Origin: an uncultured Clostridia bacterium
GTDB taxonomy: Bacteria; Bacillota; Clostridia; TANB77; CAG-508
Length of the DNA: 64,000 nt
Reading direction: 5' to 3'
NCBI GenBank assembly: GCA_934178555.1
Contig: CAKPQL010000002.1
Location: 23,419-87,418 of the forward strand
Shown here in pieces: positions 3,772-51,642 of this stretch (positions within the stretch are counted from its first letter, which is position 1; each line of letters begins with the position of its first letter). Under the pieces are notes generated by a model. That model saw nothing but the letters and a program-made list of their open reading frames with translations, was not told the DNA's origin and did not search any database. Position numbers and translations under genes: made by a program.

Positions 3772-4128
3772 ATGAATATATGTAGAATAAAAGAGAAATT
3801 AATAAATATATTAAAAATGAATCTTAAAAGTTATAGAACTAATAGAAATATAACAGTAGACGAAGCAAAACAGATATTTGCAACAACACCTAATGCTACT
3901 TTGATAGATGTGAGAAGTAATCAGGAGTATCAGGAGTATCATATTGATGGTGCTATATGTATACCTTATTATGAAATAGCAAGAAGAATAGATAAAGAAG
4001 AACCAAATAAAAATGCTTTAATAATATTGTATTGCCAAAGTGGAACTAGAAGTAAAAAGGCGTTAGAAATATTATTAAAAAAAGGGTATCAAAATGTATA
4101 TCATATAAAAGAAGGTTTAGATGGTTAA
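3772..4128 (+). CDS. rhodanese-like domain protein
   Basis: Active-site loop YCQSGTRS and a typical LIDVRS...EY..GHI pattern. Confidence 0.75.
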   Translation: MNICRIKEKLINILKMNLKSYRTNRNITVDEAKQIFATTPNATLIDVRSNQEYQEYHIDGAICIPYYEIARRIDKEEPNKNALIILYCQSGTRSKKALEILLKKGYQNVYHIKEGLDG

Positions 4129-5003
4129 GAGTGTATTATATTATAAATATCACTAGGCAAATCGGTAGTAATACTGATTTGCTTTTTAGTTATAGGATGA
4201 ATAAAGGAAACTTTGTATGCATGTAATGCTTGTCTATCTATTAATTCAGAGCTTGTACCATATAGCGTATCACCAACAATTGGATGTCCGACAAACTTAG
4301 AATGTACACGTATTTGATGAGTACGACCTGTTTCTAAAACAAATTTTACTATAGATAGGTTATTAACAACTTTAATAACCTCATAATGGGTAATTGCGAT
4401 ATCTCCATTTTGAGATACTTCTCTTTCTATAATGCTATTTTCTTTTCTGGCTATAGGTGCAGAGATAGTACCTTGCTTTGGGGTTAATATACCATTTAGT
4501 ATTGCAATATACTCTTTTATAAAAATTTTAGATTTCATTTGTTTTACTAAATATTCTTGAATATATTCATTTTTGGCAAATAATACAATGCCAGAAGTAT
4601 CCTTATCTAGTCTATTAATAGGGCGAATTTTTTTATTAAAACCAATAGAATTAAAGTAATATTTTATTCCATTAGAAAGACTATCAGAGTAATGCAAATG
4701 TGAAGGATGGACCGGCATATGTGGAGGCTTATTTACAATTAATAAACAATCGTCTTCATACAAAATATCTAAATTGATTGGAGTTGGAACTATATTTGAA
4801 TTATCTTCTTCAAAATCAATAATTACTGTAATAATATCTCCAACAGAAATGGGATTCCAACTATAGGAAATGACTCCATTAAGGTAAATTTGACTTGCTC
4901 TTTTTAGCTTTAAAATAAGCCTATCAGACATATTAAATTCAAGTTTTAAAACATCAAGTATTTTTTTATAATTAATGTTAATATTTTTATATTCTAATTT
5001 CAT
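4125..5003 (-). CDS. RluA-family pseudouridine synthase
   Basis: 292 aa with an S4-like N-terminus plus the motifs HRLDKDTSG-like (NRLDKDTSGIVLFAK) and GRTHQIRVH. Confidence 0.85.
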   Translation of the reverse strand: MKLEYKNININYKKILDVLKLEFNMSDRLILKLKRASQIYLNGVISYSWNPISVGDIITVIIDFEEDNSNIVPTPINLDILYEDDCLLIVNKPPHMPVHPSHLHYSDSLSNGIKYYFNSIGFNKKIRPINRLDKDTSGIVLFAKNEYIQEYLVKQMKSKIFIKEYIAILNGILTPKQGTISAPIARKENSIIEREVSQNGDIAITHYEVIKVVNNLSIVKFVLETGRTHQIRVHSKFVGHPIVGDTLYGTSSELIDRQALHAYKVSFIHPITKKQISITTDLPSDIYNIIHS

Positions 5004-38032: not shown

Positions 38033-38135
38033 AAAATAGAGTAGAAAACAATAGTTAAGGACTACTAAACGGGAAGTTGTTAGTAGGAGAAAAAATACTT
38101 ATTTTGCTTATTAGTTTTCGCATTCCGCTATTAGT
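38033..38135 (+). promoter_or_regulatory. THF (tetrahydrofolate) riboswitch
   Basis: Matches the remembered THF aptamer layout. AUAGAGUAG-AAAAC...AGUUAAG, then CUACUA-AACGGGAAGUUGU-UAGUAG, then GUUUU-CGCAUUCCGCUAU, with compensatory P1/P2/P3 pairings. Located in the folT leader. Confidence 0.78.
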
Positions 38136-44131: not shown

Positions 44132-46156
44132 ATGGAAAAAGAAGGGAACATATTAGAAATAGAAAAAATAGGAAAATTGATTAGAAAATTTTCAATACCT
44201 TGTATTATATCATTAGTAGTAAACTCATTATACAATATGGTAGACCAAATATTTATTGGGTGGGGAATTGGATATTTAGGAAATGGAGCAACAAATGTAG
44301 TTTTTCCATTAACTATGATAGCATTAGCTATTGCCTTGATGCTTGGAGATGGAGCATCAGCATATATGAGCTTGAAATTAGGTGAGAAAAAGAAAGAGGA
44401 AGCGGCTAAAGGCGTTGGTAATGGAATTGCATTATCTGTTATATCATCTATTATATATTGTGCTATTACATTGATATTTTTACCTCAATTATTGACTATA
44501 TTTGGATGTACAGATACTTTAAGAGATTATTCTACTAGCTATGGAAAAGTTATAGCAATAGGATTACCTTTTATGATAATTGGAACTACATTAAATTCTA
44601 TAATTAGAGCAGATGGCAGTCCCAAATATGCAATGATATCTATGGTGTTAGGTGCAGTTTTAAATATTGTATTAGATCCAATTTTAATATTTGTATTTAA
44701 CATGGGAATAGAAGGTGCAGCAATTGCAACTATATTTAGTCAATTTGTTACATTTGCTTTAAATGTAACATATATTAAAAAATTCAAATCTATTAGTTTA
44801 AACAAGGAGATGTTTAAACCTAAATTAAATATAGCTAAAAGAGTAACAACATTAGGAATAAGCAGTTTTATTACCCAAATGAGCTTTGTGTTTGTTATTG
44901 CAGTTGAAAATAATCTACTTGGAAAATATGGCATAGAGTCTAAATTTGGTTCTGATATTCCAATTACAGTATTAGGAATAGTTATGAAAGTGAGCCAAAT
45001 ATTAAATAGTATTATTATAGGTATTGCAGCAGGAACACAGCCTATATTCGGATATAATTATGGAGCAAGAAGATTTGATAGAGTAAAAGAGGCATTAAAA
45101 ATAGTTTTAAAAACGAGTATTATTATAAGTACAATTGCATTTATATTATTCCAAACAATACCAGATAAATTGATTTCAATTTTTGGTAGTGGTGATGAGT
45201 TATATATGGAATTTGCATGTTTAACATTTAGAACATATTTATTATTATGTATTTGCAATGGTATACAAATTCCATCAGGAATTTTCTTTCAGGCAATTGG
45301 AAAAAGTGTAAAAAGTGCAGTATTATCTTTATCACGACAAATAGTATTTTTAATTCCGGCAATGATAATTTTAAGCAATATGTTTGGAATTATGGGAGTT
45401 TTGTATGCTGGACCTGTTGCTGATGGTACGGCATTTGTTATTGCTATAGTGCTACTTGCTTTGGAAATAAAACATTTAAGAAGCATACAATATAATAGTG
45501 AGGCATTACCAGATGATACAAGTACAGATAATAAGCTACAAAAACAAATGATTATTACTATATCAAGAGAATATGGTTCAGGAGGAAGATACATAGGAAG
45601 ATTAATTGCAGATAAGTTAGGAATTAAATTTTATGATAAAGATTTTATAGGAAAATTATCAAAACAAACAGGATTATCAGAAGAATATATCGAAATAAAT
45701 GAACAAAAAAGAGATGTATTTGATGCATTAAATAGTGGATATTATTCAGGCATAAGTAATGCAGATGAGTTATTTATAAAAGAGTCAGAATTAATTAAAG
45801 AAATTGCTGATAGAGAATCTTGCGTAATTATAGGAAGGTGTGCTGATTTTATATTAAAAGATAGAAAAAATATATTAAAAGTATTTGTATATAGCGATAT
45901 GGAACATAAGATACAAAGAGCTAGTGATTTTTATGGACTTAATAAAGAAAATGCAGAAAAAGAAATTAAGAGAATTAATAAATTAAGAGCAAATCACTAT
46001 AAATATTATACAGAAAAAGATTGGAATAATTATAATAATTATGACGTTTGTATAAATAGTGATACTTTGGGAGTAGAAAATGCAGCAGAATTAATTTGTA
46101 ATCTAGTAAATAAGAAGGAGTATTCAGATGAACAAAATTTTGTTAGTAGAAGATAA
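44132..46156 (+). CDS. MATE family efflux transporter fused to a C-terminal cytidylate kinase-like domain
   Basis: The first 450 aa or so form a 12-TM MATE pattern (NSLYNMVDQIFIG..., GTQPIFGYNYGA). The C-terminal 200 aa or so begin ITISREYGSGGRYIGRLIADKLG, typical of the cytidylate-kinase-like family. Confidence 0.78.
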   Translation: MEKEGNILEIEKIGKLIRKFSIPCIISLVVNSLYNMVDQIFIGWGIGYLGNGATNVVFPLTMIALAIALMLGDGASAYMSLKLGEKKKEEAAKGVGNGIALSVISSIIYCAITLIFLPQLLTIFGCTDTLRDYSTSYGKVIAIGLPFMIIGTTLNSIIRADGSPKYAMISMVLGAVLNIVLDPILIFVFNMGIEGAAIATIFSQFVTFALNVTYIKKFKSISLNKEMFKPKLNIAKRVTTLGISSFITQMSFVFVIAVENNLLGKYGIESKFGSDIPITVLGIVMKVSQILNSIIIGIAAGTQPIFGYNYGARRFDRVKEALKIVLKTSIIISTIAFILFQTIPDKLISIFGSGDELYMEFACLTFRTYLLLCICNGIQIPSGIFFQAIGKSVKSAVLSLSRQIVFLIPAMIILSNMFGIMGVLYAGPVADGTAFVIAIVLLALEIKHLRSIQYNSEALPDDTSTDNKLQKQMIITISREYGSGGRYIGRLIADKLGIKFYDKDFIGKLSKQTGLSEEYIEINEQKRDVFDALNSGYYSGISNADELFIKESELIKEIADRESCVIIGRCADFILKDRKNILKVFVYSDMEHKIQRASDFYGLNKENAEKEIKRINKLRANHYKYYTEKDWNNYNNYDVCINSDTLGVENAAELICNLVNKKEYSDEQNFVSRR

Positions 46157-46803
46157 TGAAGCCATATTATTAGGATTATCATATCTTTTAAAAGAAGAAA
46201 ATTTTGATTATATTATTGCAAAAACTAAAAGGGAAGCTTTAAAGTTGATTGATACTACTAACTTTGATTTATGTTTATTAGATGTTACATTATTAGATGG
46301 CAATGGATTTGAGTTATGCAAATATATAAAGGATAAAAATAAGGCTCCTGTAATATTTTTAACTGCTATGGATGAAGAAAAAGATGTTGTACAAGGTTTA
46401 GATATGGGGGCTGATGATTATATAATAAAACCATTTAGAAACAGAGAACTAATTTCAAGAATAAATAATGTATTAAGAAGAAACAATAAAACGAATGCTT
46501 GCTTGATTTGTGAAAATATCAAAATAGATATAGAGAGTGGTAAGGTATTTAAAAGTAATCAGGAGATAGAATTAACGAAATTAGAATATAAAATTTTAGT
46601 AAATTTATTTTCTAACATAGGAAAATTAGTTACAAGAGAAAAAATTTTAAATGATATATGGGATATATGCCGGTAATTTTGTAGAAGATAATACACTAAC
46701 GGTATACATAAAGAGAATTAGAGAAAAAATTGATGATAAAGATGGAAAAATAATTAAAACAATAAGAGGGTTAGGATATAGAGTAGGAGGAGACTCTAAA
46801 TGA
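46128..46803 (+). pseudogene. OmpR-family response regulator, reading frame interrupted (+1) at an in-frame CGG
   Basis: Receiver domain (LLVEDNE...DLCLLDVTL). The frame reads ...ILNDIWDIC-R(CGG 46671-73)-stop. Skipping the C gives GNFVEDNTLTVYIKRIREKI...IRGLGYRV, ending in TGA 46801-03, which overlaps the kinase ATG (ATGA). Confidence 0.8.
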
Positions 46804-48109: not shown

Positions 48110-48826
48110 TTAATCTAAGGTGAATTTTTTGCCCTTAATTTTGTCCAAAGTGTATGATTCATTCACTTGAATATTAACCCAAATATCTTTTTTAGTAGTT
48201 ATTTTAACCGGTCCTTTATTATCTTCTACAGTAATTGTAAATTGAACTTCAGAACAACTGTCAAGTATTTCTGTTCCATAAAGAGTTACTTCCTTAAATG
48301 TGGGAAGATTTTCTGAACCGTTTACAGTAACAAATCTAACAATTTCTTTTTTTGTAAAGTCATAGGTGTATTGGGTTCTATACCAGCCATTTTCTTGCAT
48401 TACTTGTTGGATGGTAATATTTGTTGCGCCTTCAGGAGGTTTACTATAAGATACAATGTTCTTTTGGGTTACATTATCTGCAATAGTTGCGGTATAACTC
48501 CATTGTTTTGACAAAACTTTTTTAGATGAAGTAGAAATATTATAAATACAAACAGCAATTTGTATTGTAGCAACTATTAGTACTATGTAACCTAGTAATT
48601 CCCAGCCGTTTGGAAGGTTTTTATCAGGCTCATTGAGGTCATCATTAATGTCATCATACGAAATTTTTTCCACCTCTTCATAATCTGTTAAGATGTTGGT
48701 TGTTTCTTCGCTTCCGGTCCGTACAGCACCACAGCCTCCACAACTTTTTTGTGATAAGTCGTTTAGAAAGCCACAGTAAGCACATTTCCATTTCTTTTCG
48801 CTTTTACGAATGATGTCTTTTCCCAT
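48110..48826 (-). CDS. zinc-ribbon membrane protein (hypothetical)
   Basis: N-terminal CAYC...CGGC zinc ribbon, acidic linker, one TM and a 140-aa extracytoplasmic domain. Visibly higher GC than the genome background. Confidence 0.6.
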   Translation of the reverse strand: MGKDIIRKSEKKWKCAYCGFLNDLSQKSCGGCGAVRTGSEETTNILTDYEEVEKISYDDINDDLNEPDKNLPNGWELLGYIVLIVATIQIAVCIYNISTSSKKVLSKQWSYTATIADNVTQKNIVSYSKPPEGATNITIQQVMQENGWYRTQYTYDFTKKEIVRFVTVNGSENLPTFKEVTLYGTEILDSCSEVQFTITVEDNKGPVKITTKKDIWVNIQVNESYTLDKIKGKKFTLD

Positions 48827-49143
48827 ATATATTCTCCTTTTTAATGTTATATGATCTTACTATACAGATCATTAGGTTAATAAAGTCTATTAACATAATA
48901 TCATTTTTAAATTACAAAGTCAATAATTATAAAATATTATAATATAACTATTGTTGTTGAAATATTGTAAAAATATGGATATTAATATAAATTGACATAA
49001 AATTGACTTATGATGAAAAAACTGGTAAGATATATATGGTTTATTTTTAGAGTGCAATTTAACTATAAAAAATAGTATATATTTTTATAATGTTTAATTG
49101 CAACCTATTAACTCAATTACTATATAAACAGGAGGAAAAGAAC

Positions 49144-50514
49144 ATGAGTTTAAGAACCAAATGGTACATTGCAAATCAATTTAATGAGGTAACACACACA
49201 ACATTAAATCCTCATGGACCTGGTTGCATCCGGATACATTTAGTACCTGCCAAGAATGCTAGTAAGGAACCATCGGTAGTGGTATTAAATGGTATGGATA
49301 TTGTTCCTATCAATCCATCATGGGCTATTTTGCTTAACTGCTTAATTGATGAAATTAACCATTACAATGGTCATCAAATTACTGAAGAGCAAATGCGCTC
49401 AATAGTTACTAATGCATTACACACTGCACGAAAGGTATTTCCTAAAACAGCTATTGAAACTTTGAAGGATGACTTAAAAACCATTATGCAAACTCTTCAG
49501 GACGTAGCATATGGTAAAACTCCTTCAGTTGATATTGGTTATATGTCAATAGGAGAGTATGCACCTTTTATGAAAGGACCACACCGTATGGACTTTATGG
49601 TTACTGGTATGAAAAAAGACAATCACTGGCACTGCAATCAAAAATGTTTGCACTGCTATGCGGCTGGTCAATGTGAGGCTGAAGTGCCTGAAATGCCCAC
49701 AGAAGACTGCAAAAGAGTTATTCATAAGTTACGTCAGATAGGTATTCCTCAGATTACATTTACTGGTGGGGAGCCCACGATGCGTGATGATCTTGTAGAA
49801 CTGGTAAAAACAGCTTACTGGTTCGTAACGCGTCTAAATACCAATGGAGTAAGACTGAGCCAGGAACTTTGTCGAAAACTTCATGATGCAGACTTAGACA
49901 GTGTACAAATTACTTTCTATTCTGATAATGAAGAAACCCATAATACATTAGTAGGTGCTCAAAATTATCATAAGACTGTAAATGGTATCAAAAATGCACT
50001 TGACGTGGGGCTTGCAGTGAGTATTAATACACCACTGTGCACGATTAACCGTGATTATGTTTCTACACTTAAGTTTTTACATAAACTGGGTGTGGAATAT
50101 GTATCGTGTTCTGGACTTATACTTACTGGTAATGCTCGTAATTACAATTCAAAGATAACTCAACTGCCAAATGATGAACTTTATGGAATCTTGAAAGAAG
50201 CAGTAGAATACTGCAATGCTAACCAAATGGAAATTTCATTTACTAGTCCAGGTTGGATTGAAGATGAAAAAATTCGCCAACTTGGTCTTACAGTTCCATC
50301 TTGTGGTGCTTGCTTATCCAATATGGCTATTGCACCTAATGGAGACATTGTGCCTTGCCAAAGCTGGCTTTCTGACAAACCTCTTGGCAATATATTGGTA
50401 GACAAGTGGAGTAAAGTATGGAACAGCAGTGAATGCGAGCAAATTCGTAATTATTCGGCTGGAATGTATGGTAAATGTCCTTTACGTAACAAAAATAAAA
50501 CAGAAGGAGAATAA
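49144..50514 (+). CDS. radical SAM enzyme with SPASM/twitch-like C-terminal Cys domain and a roughly 165-aa N-terminal extension
   Basis: CNQKCLHCYA is a CxxxCxxC motif, and GGEPTM is present. The C-terminal CGACLSNMAIAPNGDIVPC (Cx11Gx4C) plus further Cys are SPASM-like. AGGAGG RBS. Confidence 0.8.
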   Translation: MSLRTKWYIANQFNEVTHTTLNPHGPGCIRIHLVPAKNASKEPSVVVLNGMDIVPINPSWAILLNCLIDEINHYNGHQITEEQMRSIVTNALHTARKVFPKTAIETLKDDLKTIMQTLQDVAYGKTPSVDIGYMSIGEYAPFMKGPHRMDFMVTGMKKDNHWHCNQKCLHCYAAGQCEAEVPEMPTEDCKRVIHKLRQIGIPQITFTGGEPTMRDDLVELVKTAYWFVTRLNTNGVRLSQELCRKLHDADLDSVQITFYSDNEETHNTLVGAQNYHKTVNGIKNALDVGLAVSINTPLCTINRDYVSTLKFLHKLGVEYVSCSGLILTGNARNYNSKITQLPNDELYGILKEAVEYCNANQMEISFTSPGWIEDEKIRQLGLTVPSCGACLSNMAIAPNGDIVPCQSWLSDKPLGNILVDKWSKVWNSSECEQIRNYSAGMYGKCPLRNKNKTEGE

Positions 50515-50519
50515 ACATT

Positions 50520-51488
50520 ATGAAGGTTTTACGTATAAGTTTGTTAATGTTGCTTTTGGTGATAATGTTTGTAAGTCACTGGGCTATATCTGTATTTGCC
50601 AAAGAAAATTTGGATGAGATTGAACAGTATACAATTACATCCAATGTTCGGGAAGATGGTACATTAGACCTTAAATACTATATTGAATGGAAGGTTCTGG
50701 ATAGTGAATCTGAAGGACCATTAGAGTGGGTAAAAATTGGAATCCCAAATAAGCATGTTGATTCTATTACACCACTCACGAACAGCATAAAGAGTGCAGA
50801 ATACTATGCAGACGGAGGTTCTTTTGTACGATTGGATCTTGACAGAAAATATCAGGCGGGTGAAACTGTAATTATGGAGTTTACTATTCATCAAGGCTAT
50901 ATGTATATGCTTGATGATGATAATATTAAGTATTCTTTTACAGCTGGTTGGTTTGACAAGATTATAGTAAAAAGTATTGAAATTCGTTGGAATAGCAACT
51001 GGGTAGCTGAATCTACAGCATCAGAAGTATCTTTAGATGGAAAATATTTAATTTGGAAAGGTAGTTTAGCAGAAGGTGAACATTTTAGTACATCTGTTAA
51101 ATATCCAAAGGATACATTTGCTACCAATGAAAATGAGCAATTTGTTGAAGGACATGATAAAGACAGTTCAGGTGTTTTGCTCACCATAATTATAATTGGA
51201 GGTATTATACTTGTTTTTGTTATTATTGTTATTGAGAATGATGATTACAACGGAGGTAATGGCTTTAAAACAGGAGGTAAACAATCTACTTACGTATCTT
51301 CTTGCGTACGTAGCTCATGTGCTTGCGTTAGCTGTGCGTGTGCATGTGCTTGCGCGGGTGGAGGTAGAGCAGGATGTAGTGTCAAGGAGCTGTACCATGG
51401 ACAAAATATCCGTAATGACGAAAAGAATGACTCACAGGTTACTCTTTTAATTAAGGTACTTAGTGAAAAAGTAATTGAATTAAAATAA
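50520..51488 (+). CDS. single-pass membrane protein, DUF2207-like N-terminal domain, Cys-Ala repeat cytoplasmic tail
   Basis: Signal peptide, a 190-aa ectodomain, one TM (LLTIIIIGGIILVFVIIVI), then the tail SSCVRSSCACVSCACACACAGGGRAGCS. Starts 6 nt after the radical SAM stop. Confidence 0.65.
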   Translation: MKVLRISLLMLLLVIMFVSHWAISVFAKENLDEIEQYTITSNVREDGTLDLKYYIEWKVLDSESEGPLEWVKIGIPNKHVDSITPLTNSIKSAEYYADGGSFVRLDLDRKYQAGETVIMEFTIHQGYMYMLDDDNIKYSFTAGWFDKIIVKSIEIRWNSNWVAESTASEVSLDGKYLIWKGSLAEGEHFSTSVKYPKDTFATNENEQFVEGHDKDSSGVLLTIIIIGGIILVFVIIVIENDDYNGGNGFKTGGKQSTYVSSCVRSSCACVSCACACACAGGGRAGCSVKELYHGQNIRNDEKNDSQVTLLIKVLSEKVIELK

Positions 51489-51507: not shown

Positions 51508-51536
51508 AGCAGTTCCATTTGGAACTGCTCTTTTTT
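51508..51536 (+). terminator. rho-independent terminator
   Basis: agcagttcc/ggaactgct stem followed by TTTTTT. Confidence 0.8.
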
Positions 51537-51642
51537 GCTTACTAAGAAAGTACAACTGGTTTGTTGATGTATTGTATAATTAATTGGCGGTAATACCCAC
51601 ATAGTTTCGTCTGAGAAAGCAACTTTAAAAAAATTTAGTATA

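Follow-up and report, generated by a model that had tools for sequence, protein, structure and literature searches.

Enzymes of the radical S-adenosylmethionine (radical SAM) superfamily with a SPASM-type C-terminal domain, encoded beside a Cys-rich target, are a known kind of system. Radical SAM maturases of RiPPs, peptides that ribosomes synthesize and that then undergo post-translational modification, act on small soluble precursor peptides, while in quinohemoprotein amine dehydrogenase the radical SAM/SPASM enzyme QhpD installs Cys thioethers in the subunit QhpC, where they are kept in the mature protein. Further pairs of radical SAM/SPASM enzymes and targets, defined in silico by Haft through co-occurrence, reportedly include ACGX targets composed of Ala/Cys/Gly repeats. 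The locus described here lies at positions 49144-51488 of a 64,000-nucleotide stretch of contig CAKPQL010000002.1 (assembly GCA_934178555.1) from an uncultured Clostridia bacterium, hereafter the window, and encodes a radical SAM enzyme followed by a single-pass membrane protein with a Cys-Ala tail. Genomic evidence makes it fairly probable that the two constitute a dedicated enzyme-substrate module, in which the tail of the membrane protein is the substrate of the enzyme. A target that is the tail of a complete single-pass membrane protein, and whose motif stays nearly invariant from phylum to phylum, seems not to have been described.

The two genes are co-directional on the plus strand, to which all coordinates refer unless stated otherwise, and occupy 49144-50514 (enzyme) and 50520-51488 (tail protein). 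The enzyme gene starts at ATG 49144, preceded by an AGGAGG ribosome-binding site (RBS) at 49131-49136, and its 456-aa product is identical to the database protein P0121. Its stop codon (50512-50514) is separated from the next ATG, at 50520, by a spacer of 5 nt, the RBS of the tail-protein gene sits within the 3' end of the enzyme gene, and an intrinsic terminator, composed of a 9-bp stem and a T-run, comes right after the tail-protein gene (51508-51539). Because of the RBS, the short spacer and the terminator directly behind the second gene, the pair is one two-gene operon. An earlier interpretation made from the letters alone, the sequence-only reading, had identified both open reading frames (ORFs), which are present as proposed; the tight linkage that it described also stands, although the gap that it gave as 6 nt measures 5. 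A promoter-like site, TTGACT-17-TAAGAT, is found upstream (49003-49031) by consensus match only. Just downstream of the pair, the window encodes an ABC/FtsX transporter, and the terminator of the pair precedes these ABC genes.

The tail protein (322 aa), whose assignment as a single-pass membrane protein draws on the ORF, its homologues and an AlphaFold2 (AF2) model, has no Pfam or NCBIfam family. In the model, an N-terminal hydrophobic helix (residues 2-21) forms part of a predicted signal peptide (residues 1-27; 50520-50600), which would be cleaved at SVFA|KE. It is followed by an extracytoplasmic domain (50601-51164) with a confident beta-sandwich (residues 32-196), a transmembrane (TM) helix (residues 216-239; 51165-51236), a stretch predicted to be disordered (about residues 241-308; 51237-51434), and a terminal helix. 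Foldseek relates the sandwich to ribophorin I/OST1 and to the N-domain of M1 aminopeptidase, a DUF2207-like type of fold; membership of DUF2207 itself was considered and rejected, as the window protein has no match and its homologues score below threshold against PF09972 (17.5 vs 24.4 bits) and PF20990 (12.8 vs 33 bits). Since the protein combines a signal peptide with a single TM helix, its tail of about 80 residues is predicted, from sequence and model, to lie in the cytoplasm; the AF2 model thereby fits the order of signal peptide, ectodomain, one TM helix and cytoplasmic tail that had been proposed. Homologues are numerous, with 2688 passing E <= 0.001 in the databases searched, and the ectodomain and TM helix are also well conserved among them.

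The core of the cytoplasmic tail is the nearly invariant CACACACAGGGRAGC, comprising 15 residues. In the window, the core encoded at 51333-51395, which the earlier interpretation had given exactly, reads CACACACAGGGRAGCSVKELY, and tail alignments and codon comparison designate it as the proposed modification site. The tail stretch as written out is SSCACVSCACACACAGGGRAGCSVKELY, and its tryptic peptide ends in CACACACAGGGR. The consensus of 226 distinct tails is C-A-C-A-C-A-C-A-[GS]-[GS]-G-R-A-G-C-[ST]-x-K-D-F-[YF], in which most positions are 96-100% invariant; the Ala and Gly match the Cys in invariance, and the Arg is invariant too. A variable Ser/Cys/Ala stretch before the core results in 5-11 Cys per tail. 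The motif is retained in 120/120 of the best homologues, which are 42-58% identical to the window protein, and a variant, CACACACASSGRAGC, is frequent among metagenome loci found via the enzyme. Additionally, the 104 core motifs in the fetched loci derive from 99 different nucleotide strings, with every synonymous codon in use, which places the constraint on the peptide and not on the DNA.

Several side observations concern the range of tail forms. Tails from outside Bacillota (L033, L039, L042, L044 and L045) have the Arg replaced (GGGGAGC) and an H-x-C-P-x-C motif added downstream, and the enzymes at these loci keep the full SPASM motif wherever the C-terminus is readable. A search with the tail alone for free-standing short peptides returned 35 matches, the short ones being mostly fragments; among them, L133 may represent a minimal form made of TM helix and tail, L132 is ambiguous, and neither contig extends far enough for a neighbouring enzyme to be seen. 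Two short database proteins, P0246 and P0272, join the enzyme N-terminus (…HTT) straight to the tail region, either as assembly artefacts or as real deletions.

The association of the two genes was surveyed in both directions. The tail-protein alignment, scanned against one genome for each GTDB species, yielded at least 47 loci, distributed among Lachnospiraceae, Oscillospiraceae, other Clostridia, Chloroflexota, Aminicenantes, Zixibacteria, Krumholzibacteriia and Chitinivibrionia. An enzyme homologue adjoins the tail gene in 46 of the 47 loci listed, and the remaining locus starts at a contig edge, so that tail homologues devoid of the enzyme, whose existence would have spoken against the proposed pairing, did not emerge. 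Conversely, when metagenomes were scanned with the alignment of the enzyme, 80 loci were kept, and the tail protein lay downstream in every testable one, meaning those in which the sequence continues for more than about 300 nt beyond the enzyme gene. One apparent exception (L120) was discarded as a probable chimera, being a 2.9-kb contig at 2.4x coverage whose encoded protein turns into PPK2 immediately behind the TM helix. The co-occurrence of enzyme and tail protein is thus near-obligate across phyla, and most of the loci retrieved stem from metagenomes and metagenome-assembled genomes (MAGs) of the human gut, the rumen and the guts of other animals.

The enzyme usually lies upstream on the same strand, and where order and strand vary, adjacency is kept: it is downstream of the tail gene at L028 and flanked by two tail proteins at L001 and L002. 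At L016, each enzyme is accompanied by two tail-bearing paralogues and a third, tail-less copy in the middle. At L047, a 603-aa DUF2207-like protein that does not match the ectodomain of the window protein bears this tail as well, with the enzyme gene coming after it; the linkage therefore follows the tail and not the ectodomain. The L047 tail protein ends in ...CACACAGGGR. ORF clustering of the 47 genome loci listed revealed no third conserved gene, the next commonest being an ABC ATPase (10/47), and found neither a protease nor an exporter conserved with the pair. In an Aminicenantes MAG (L033, 1589-2790), TPM-domain and LemA genes stand directly downstream of the pair, recalling DUF2207/LemA/TPM operons.

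The enzyme is recognized by Pfam Radical_SAM (PF04055; 75.8 bits vs a threshold of 29.5) and by Pfam SPASM (PF13186; 35.1 bits vs a gathering score of 21.5), and its assignment is shared by hidden Markov models (HMMs), structure model and Foldseek. The CxxxCxxC motif, previously located at CNQKCLHC and borne out here, consists of C164, C168 and C171 (49633-49656) and is invariant in the alignments. In the C-terminal domain (50296-50484), the only conserved cysteines are C387, C390, C405 and C445, arranged as C387-GA-C390-x9-G400-x4-C405; the extra conserved Cys that the sequence-only reading had pointed out corresponds to C445, whereas its Cx11Gx4C spacing has to be corrected to Cx9Gx4C or Cx12Gx4C. 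The enzyme departs from the full seven-Cys SPASM pattern (CX9-15GX4C ... CX2CX5CX3C ... C), which holds two auxiliary clusters: the window enzyme and all Bacillota relatives aligned lack the CX2CX5CX3C block, which is kept only in distant versions from Chloroflexota and Zixibacteria. Given this absence, the window enzyme most likely carries, as judged from its sequence, a single auxiliary cluster, and of the "SPASM/twitch" resemblance first suggested, the SPASM similarity passes in Pfam but twitch-like is the better description.

No NCBIfam equivalog passes for the enzyme, the best match being WgkB at 105.8 bits vs a cutoff of 650. NirJ2, MoaA, AhbD, PqqE, MftC, SkfB and others match below threshold; 25 of the 53 matched families are listed, and all 25 fall far under their cutoffs, among them the named radical SAM maturases (WgkB, NirJ, PqqE, MftC, SkfB, ScmE/F, HxsC, ACGX and others). 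The enzyme belongs to no curated family, and a match to a characterised one, which would have counted against the original proposal, was not obtained. In the AF2 model (mean predicted local distance difference test score 82.7), the full-length enzyme is most similar by Foldseek to the RiPP maturases SkfB, SuiB and CteB, each with an N-terminal RiPP recognition element (RRE), and then to the anaerobic sulfatase-maturating enzyme (anSME). The sequence match to SkfB spans residues 164-434, through the auxiliary domain (E = 8e-11). A viperin-like defence function was considered and set aside, as PADLOC returns generic similarity to the radical SAM core only (residues 163-303) and the partner has no match.

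Preceding the core, the enzyme has an N-terminal domain of about 150 aa (residues 1-150; 49144-49593), confidently modelled as four strands followed by three helices, a topology that agrees with the PqqD-like RRE, a winged-helix fold of three strands and three helices. At L047, a second, degenerate radical SAM paralogue lacking CxxxCxxC (3817-4977) stands directly after the active enzyme; it is collinear with the N-domain of the window enzyme in the alignment, and its own N-domain matches Pfam PqqD (PF05402) at the equivalent position (28 bits vs 23.4). AF2 topology, Foldseek relatives and this paralogue indicate that the N-domain is likely RRE-like, and whether it also recognises the tail, as would befit a candidate recognition domain, stands at about even chances.

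Taken together, the pair may operate as follows. The membrane protein would expose its beta-sandwich outside the cell and its Cys-rich disordered tail inside, where the soluble radical SAM enzyme would dock, probably via the RRE-like N-domain. A 5'-deoxyadenosyl radical and the single auxiliary Fe-S cluster would then modify the invariant core CACACACAGGGRAGC, and the product would be retained on the membrane protein rather than released. Intramolecular thioether cross-links from the repeat cysteines would be the likeliest chemistry, an assignment made by analogy that is tentative and falls clearly short of probable. It is favoured because two thioether synthases, SkfB and CteB, are among the closest relatives over the full length, because a run of cysteines is the classic thioether donor pattern, and because this chemistry would need no more than one auxiliary cluster, the number in SkfB. 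It is also conceivable, though rather speculative, that the tail is turned into a cross-linked, protein-bound cofactor on the cytoplasmic face, such as a polythioether or a centre active in redox or metal chemistry.

A different chemistry on the same substrate is a serious candidate that nonetheless stays in the range of the possible: the tail could undergo conversion of Cys to formylglycine, as catalysed by anSME, epimerisation of Ala or Cys, formation of a C-C cross-link, or H-abstraction in GGGRAG. The presence of anSME, which acts on full-length proteins, among the top structural matches is in keeping with such reactions, as is the finding that Ala and Gly vary no more than Cys, and no equivalog assigns the enzyme a reaction. 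The prominence of SkfB and CteB among the full-length matches and the donor-like Cys run tilt the other way, and nothing here is decisive.

The main rival to the enzyme-substrate module holds that the tail stays unmodified and binds a metal or Fe-S cluster, the membrane protein serving to tether, regulate or supply an enzyme that acts elsewhere, for example on a lipid. Several results weigh against a substrate role for the tail or loosen its support. Alternating Cys-x-Cys repeats also fit metal or Fe-S binding; obligate partners of any sort would co-occur too; and the best PDB sequence match of the radical SAM core is the lipid-modifying enzyme GDGT-MAS. Pfam searches with five N-domains of the enzyme family gave no RRE match, a PDB profile search with the window N-domain gave none at all, and the L047 paralogue aligns with that domain only weakly in hhalign (E = 0.013), so that the recognition role once proposed for the N-terminal extension is plausible from model, Foldseek and paralogue but finds no sequence-level RRE match. 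The enzymes of the reverse survey are limited to those 53-66% identical to that of the window, and co-variation of enzyme and tail is seen in about 5 loci only, where it is confounded by phylogeny. The unmodified metal-binding tail is nevertheless rather unlikely: in domain architecture and in its full-length matches the enzyme looks like a peptide maturase, the GDGT-MAS match is confined to the generic core (residues 163-272), the tail conserves Ala, Gly and Arg as well as Cys, and the neighbourhood has no conserved gene for a different substrate.

It is very unlikely that the membrane protein serves as a RiPP precursor of unusual size, its modified C-terminal peptide being cleaved and exported. 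The enzyme is of the RiPP-maturase type, the window has its ABC/FtsX transporter, and an ABC ATPase occurs near some of the genome loci, as given above; release is improbable because the pair has no conserved protease or exporter beside it and because the ectodomain is itself conserved, together with the TM helix. The tail is, moreover, predicted to be cytoplasmic and is followed by a conserved helix, and the ABC genes lie beyond the terminator of the operon. Finally, coincidental adjacency, or a repeat that matters as a DNA-level feature, is ruled out for practical purposes by co-occurrence near 100% across phyla and by a single peptide motif arising from 99 nucleotide versions.

The surroundings of the pair in the window bear on its history. 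On the minus strand, a divergent accessory gene (48110-48826), whose product combines a zinc ribbon with a TM helix and an ectodomain, is retained in the close subclade of the window alone (enzymes at least 63% identical), and its absence outside that subclade led to its rejection as a universal third component. This gene, the enzyme gene and the tail-protein gene together form a compositional island (48110-51488; GC content 0.33-0.38), within which the GC content at third codon positions of the two plus-strand genes is 0.25-0.27 vs 0.12-0.17 in flanking genes. The GC-rich island suggests that the three genes were acquired as one block. Elsewhere in the window, a frameshift near 46660 divides an OmpR-type response regulator (46128-46803) into two ORFs, one of 182 aa and one of 50 aa with Trans_reg_C, a split also present in four independent assemblies; a single 674-aa ORF (44132-46156) fuses a MatE efflux domain to a cytidylate-kinase-like domain; and a tetrahydrofolate (THF) riboswitch is found at 38035-38132 (58 bits).

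If the tail is indeed the substrate of the enzyme, RiPP-type radical SAM chemistry would extend from natural-product biosynthesis to the in-situ maturation of membrane proteins. Should the cofactor proposal also be true, the module would introduce a new cofactor class, built after translation and linking a beta-sandwich outside the cell with redox or metal chemistry inside it. In the databases searched the module is abundant; it occurs in several phyla of anaerobic bacteria and is widespread in gut and rumen anaerobes. The pair is a directly testable enzyme-substrate candidate, and any outcome would be new enzymology. The view that modification of such a tail would be an undescribed variant appears to hold up, as neither protein has a curated HMM and a literature search found nothing on the CACACACAGGGRAGC motif or on the enzyme-tail pairing.

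Among described systems, the membrane proteins of the DUF2207/LemA/TPM group share with the partner a signal peptide, a beta-sandwich, a TM helix and a Gly-rich tail; DUF2207 proteins are not known to have Cys-Ala tails or radical SAM partners. The ACGX-repeat system and TIGR04133 (radical SAM with lipoprotein) are distinct, since the enzyme scores 58 and 85 bits against their cutoffs of 400 and 425, and their targets are short peptides or lipoproteins, none with the tail motif found here. QhpC is a small soluble subunit with no known sequence relation to this tail. anSME is a strong structural match and, as proposed here, a radical SAM/SPASM enzyme acting on Cys of a full-length protein in the cytoplasm; it differs in having two auxiliary clusters, no RRE and a C/S-x-P-x-R target in soluble sulfatases. 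SkfB, the CteB/SCIFF maturase and AlbA share with the window enzyme the order of N-terminal domain (RRE there, likely RRE-like here), radical SAM core and auxiliary-cluster domain. Sactipeptide and ranthipeptide synthases likewise have a Cys-rich partner encoded next door, but their systems are defined by a short leader-bearing precursor and a protease or exporter, and neither of the latter is conserved with the pair in the 47 genome loci listed. Their substrates are small soluble precursors that are cleaved and exported, whereas here a membrane protein of 322 aa bears the Cys-rich candidate substrate as its tail.
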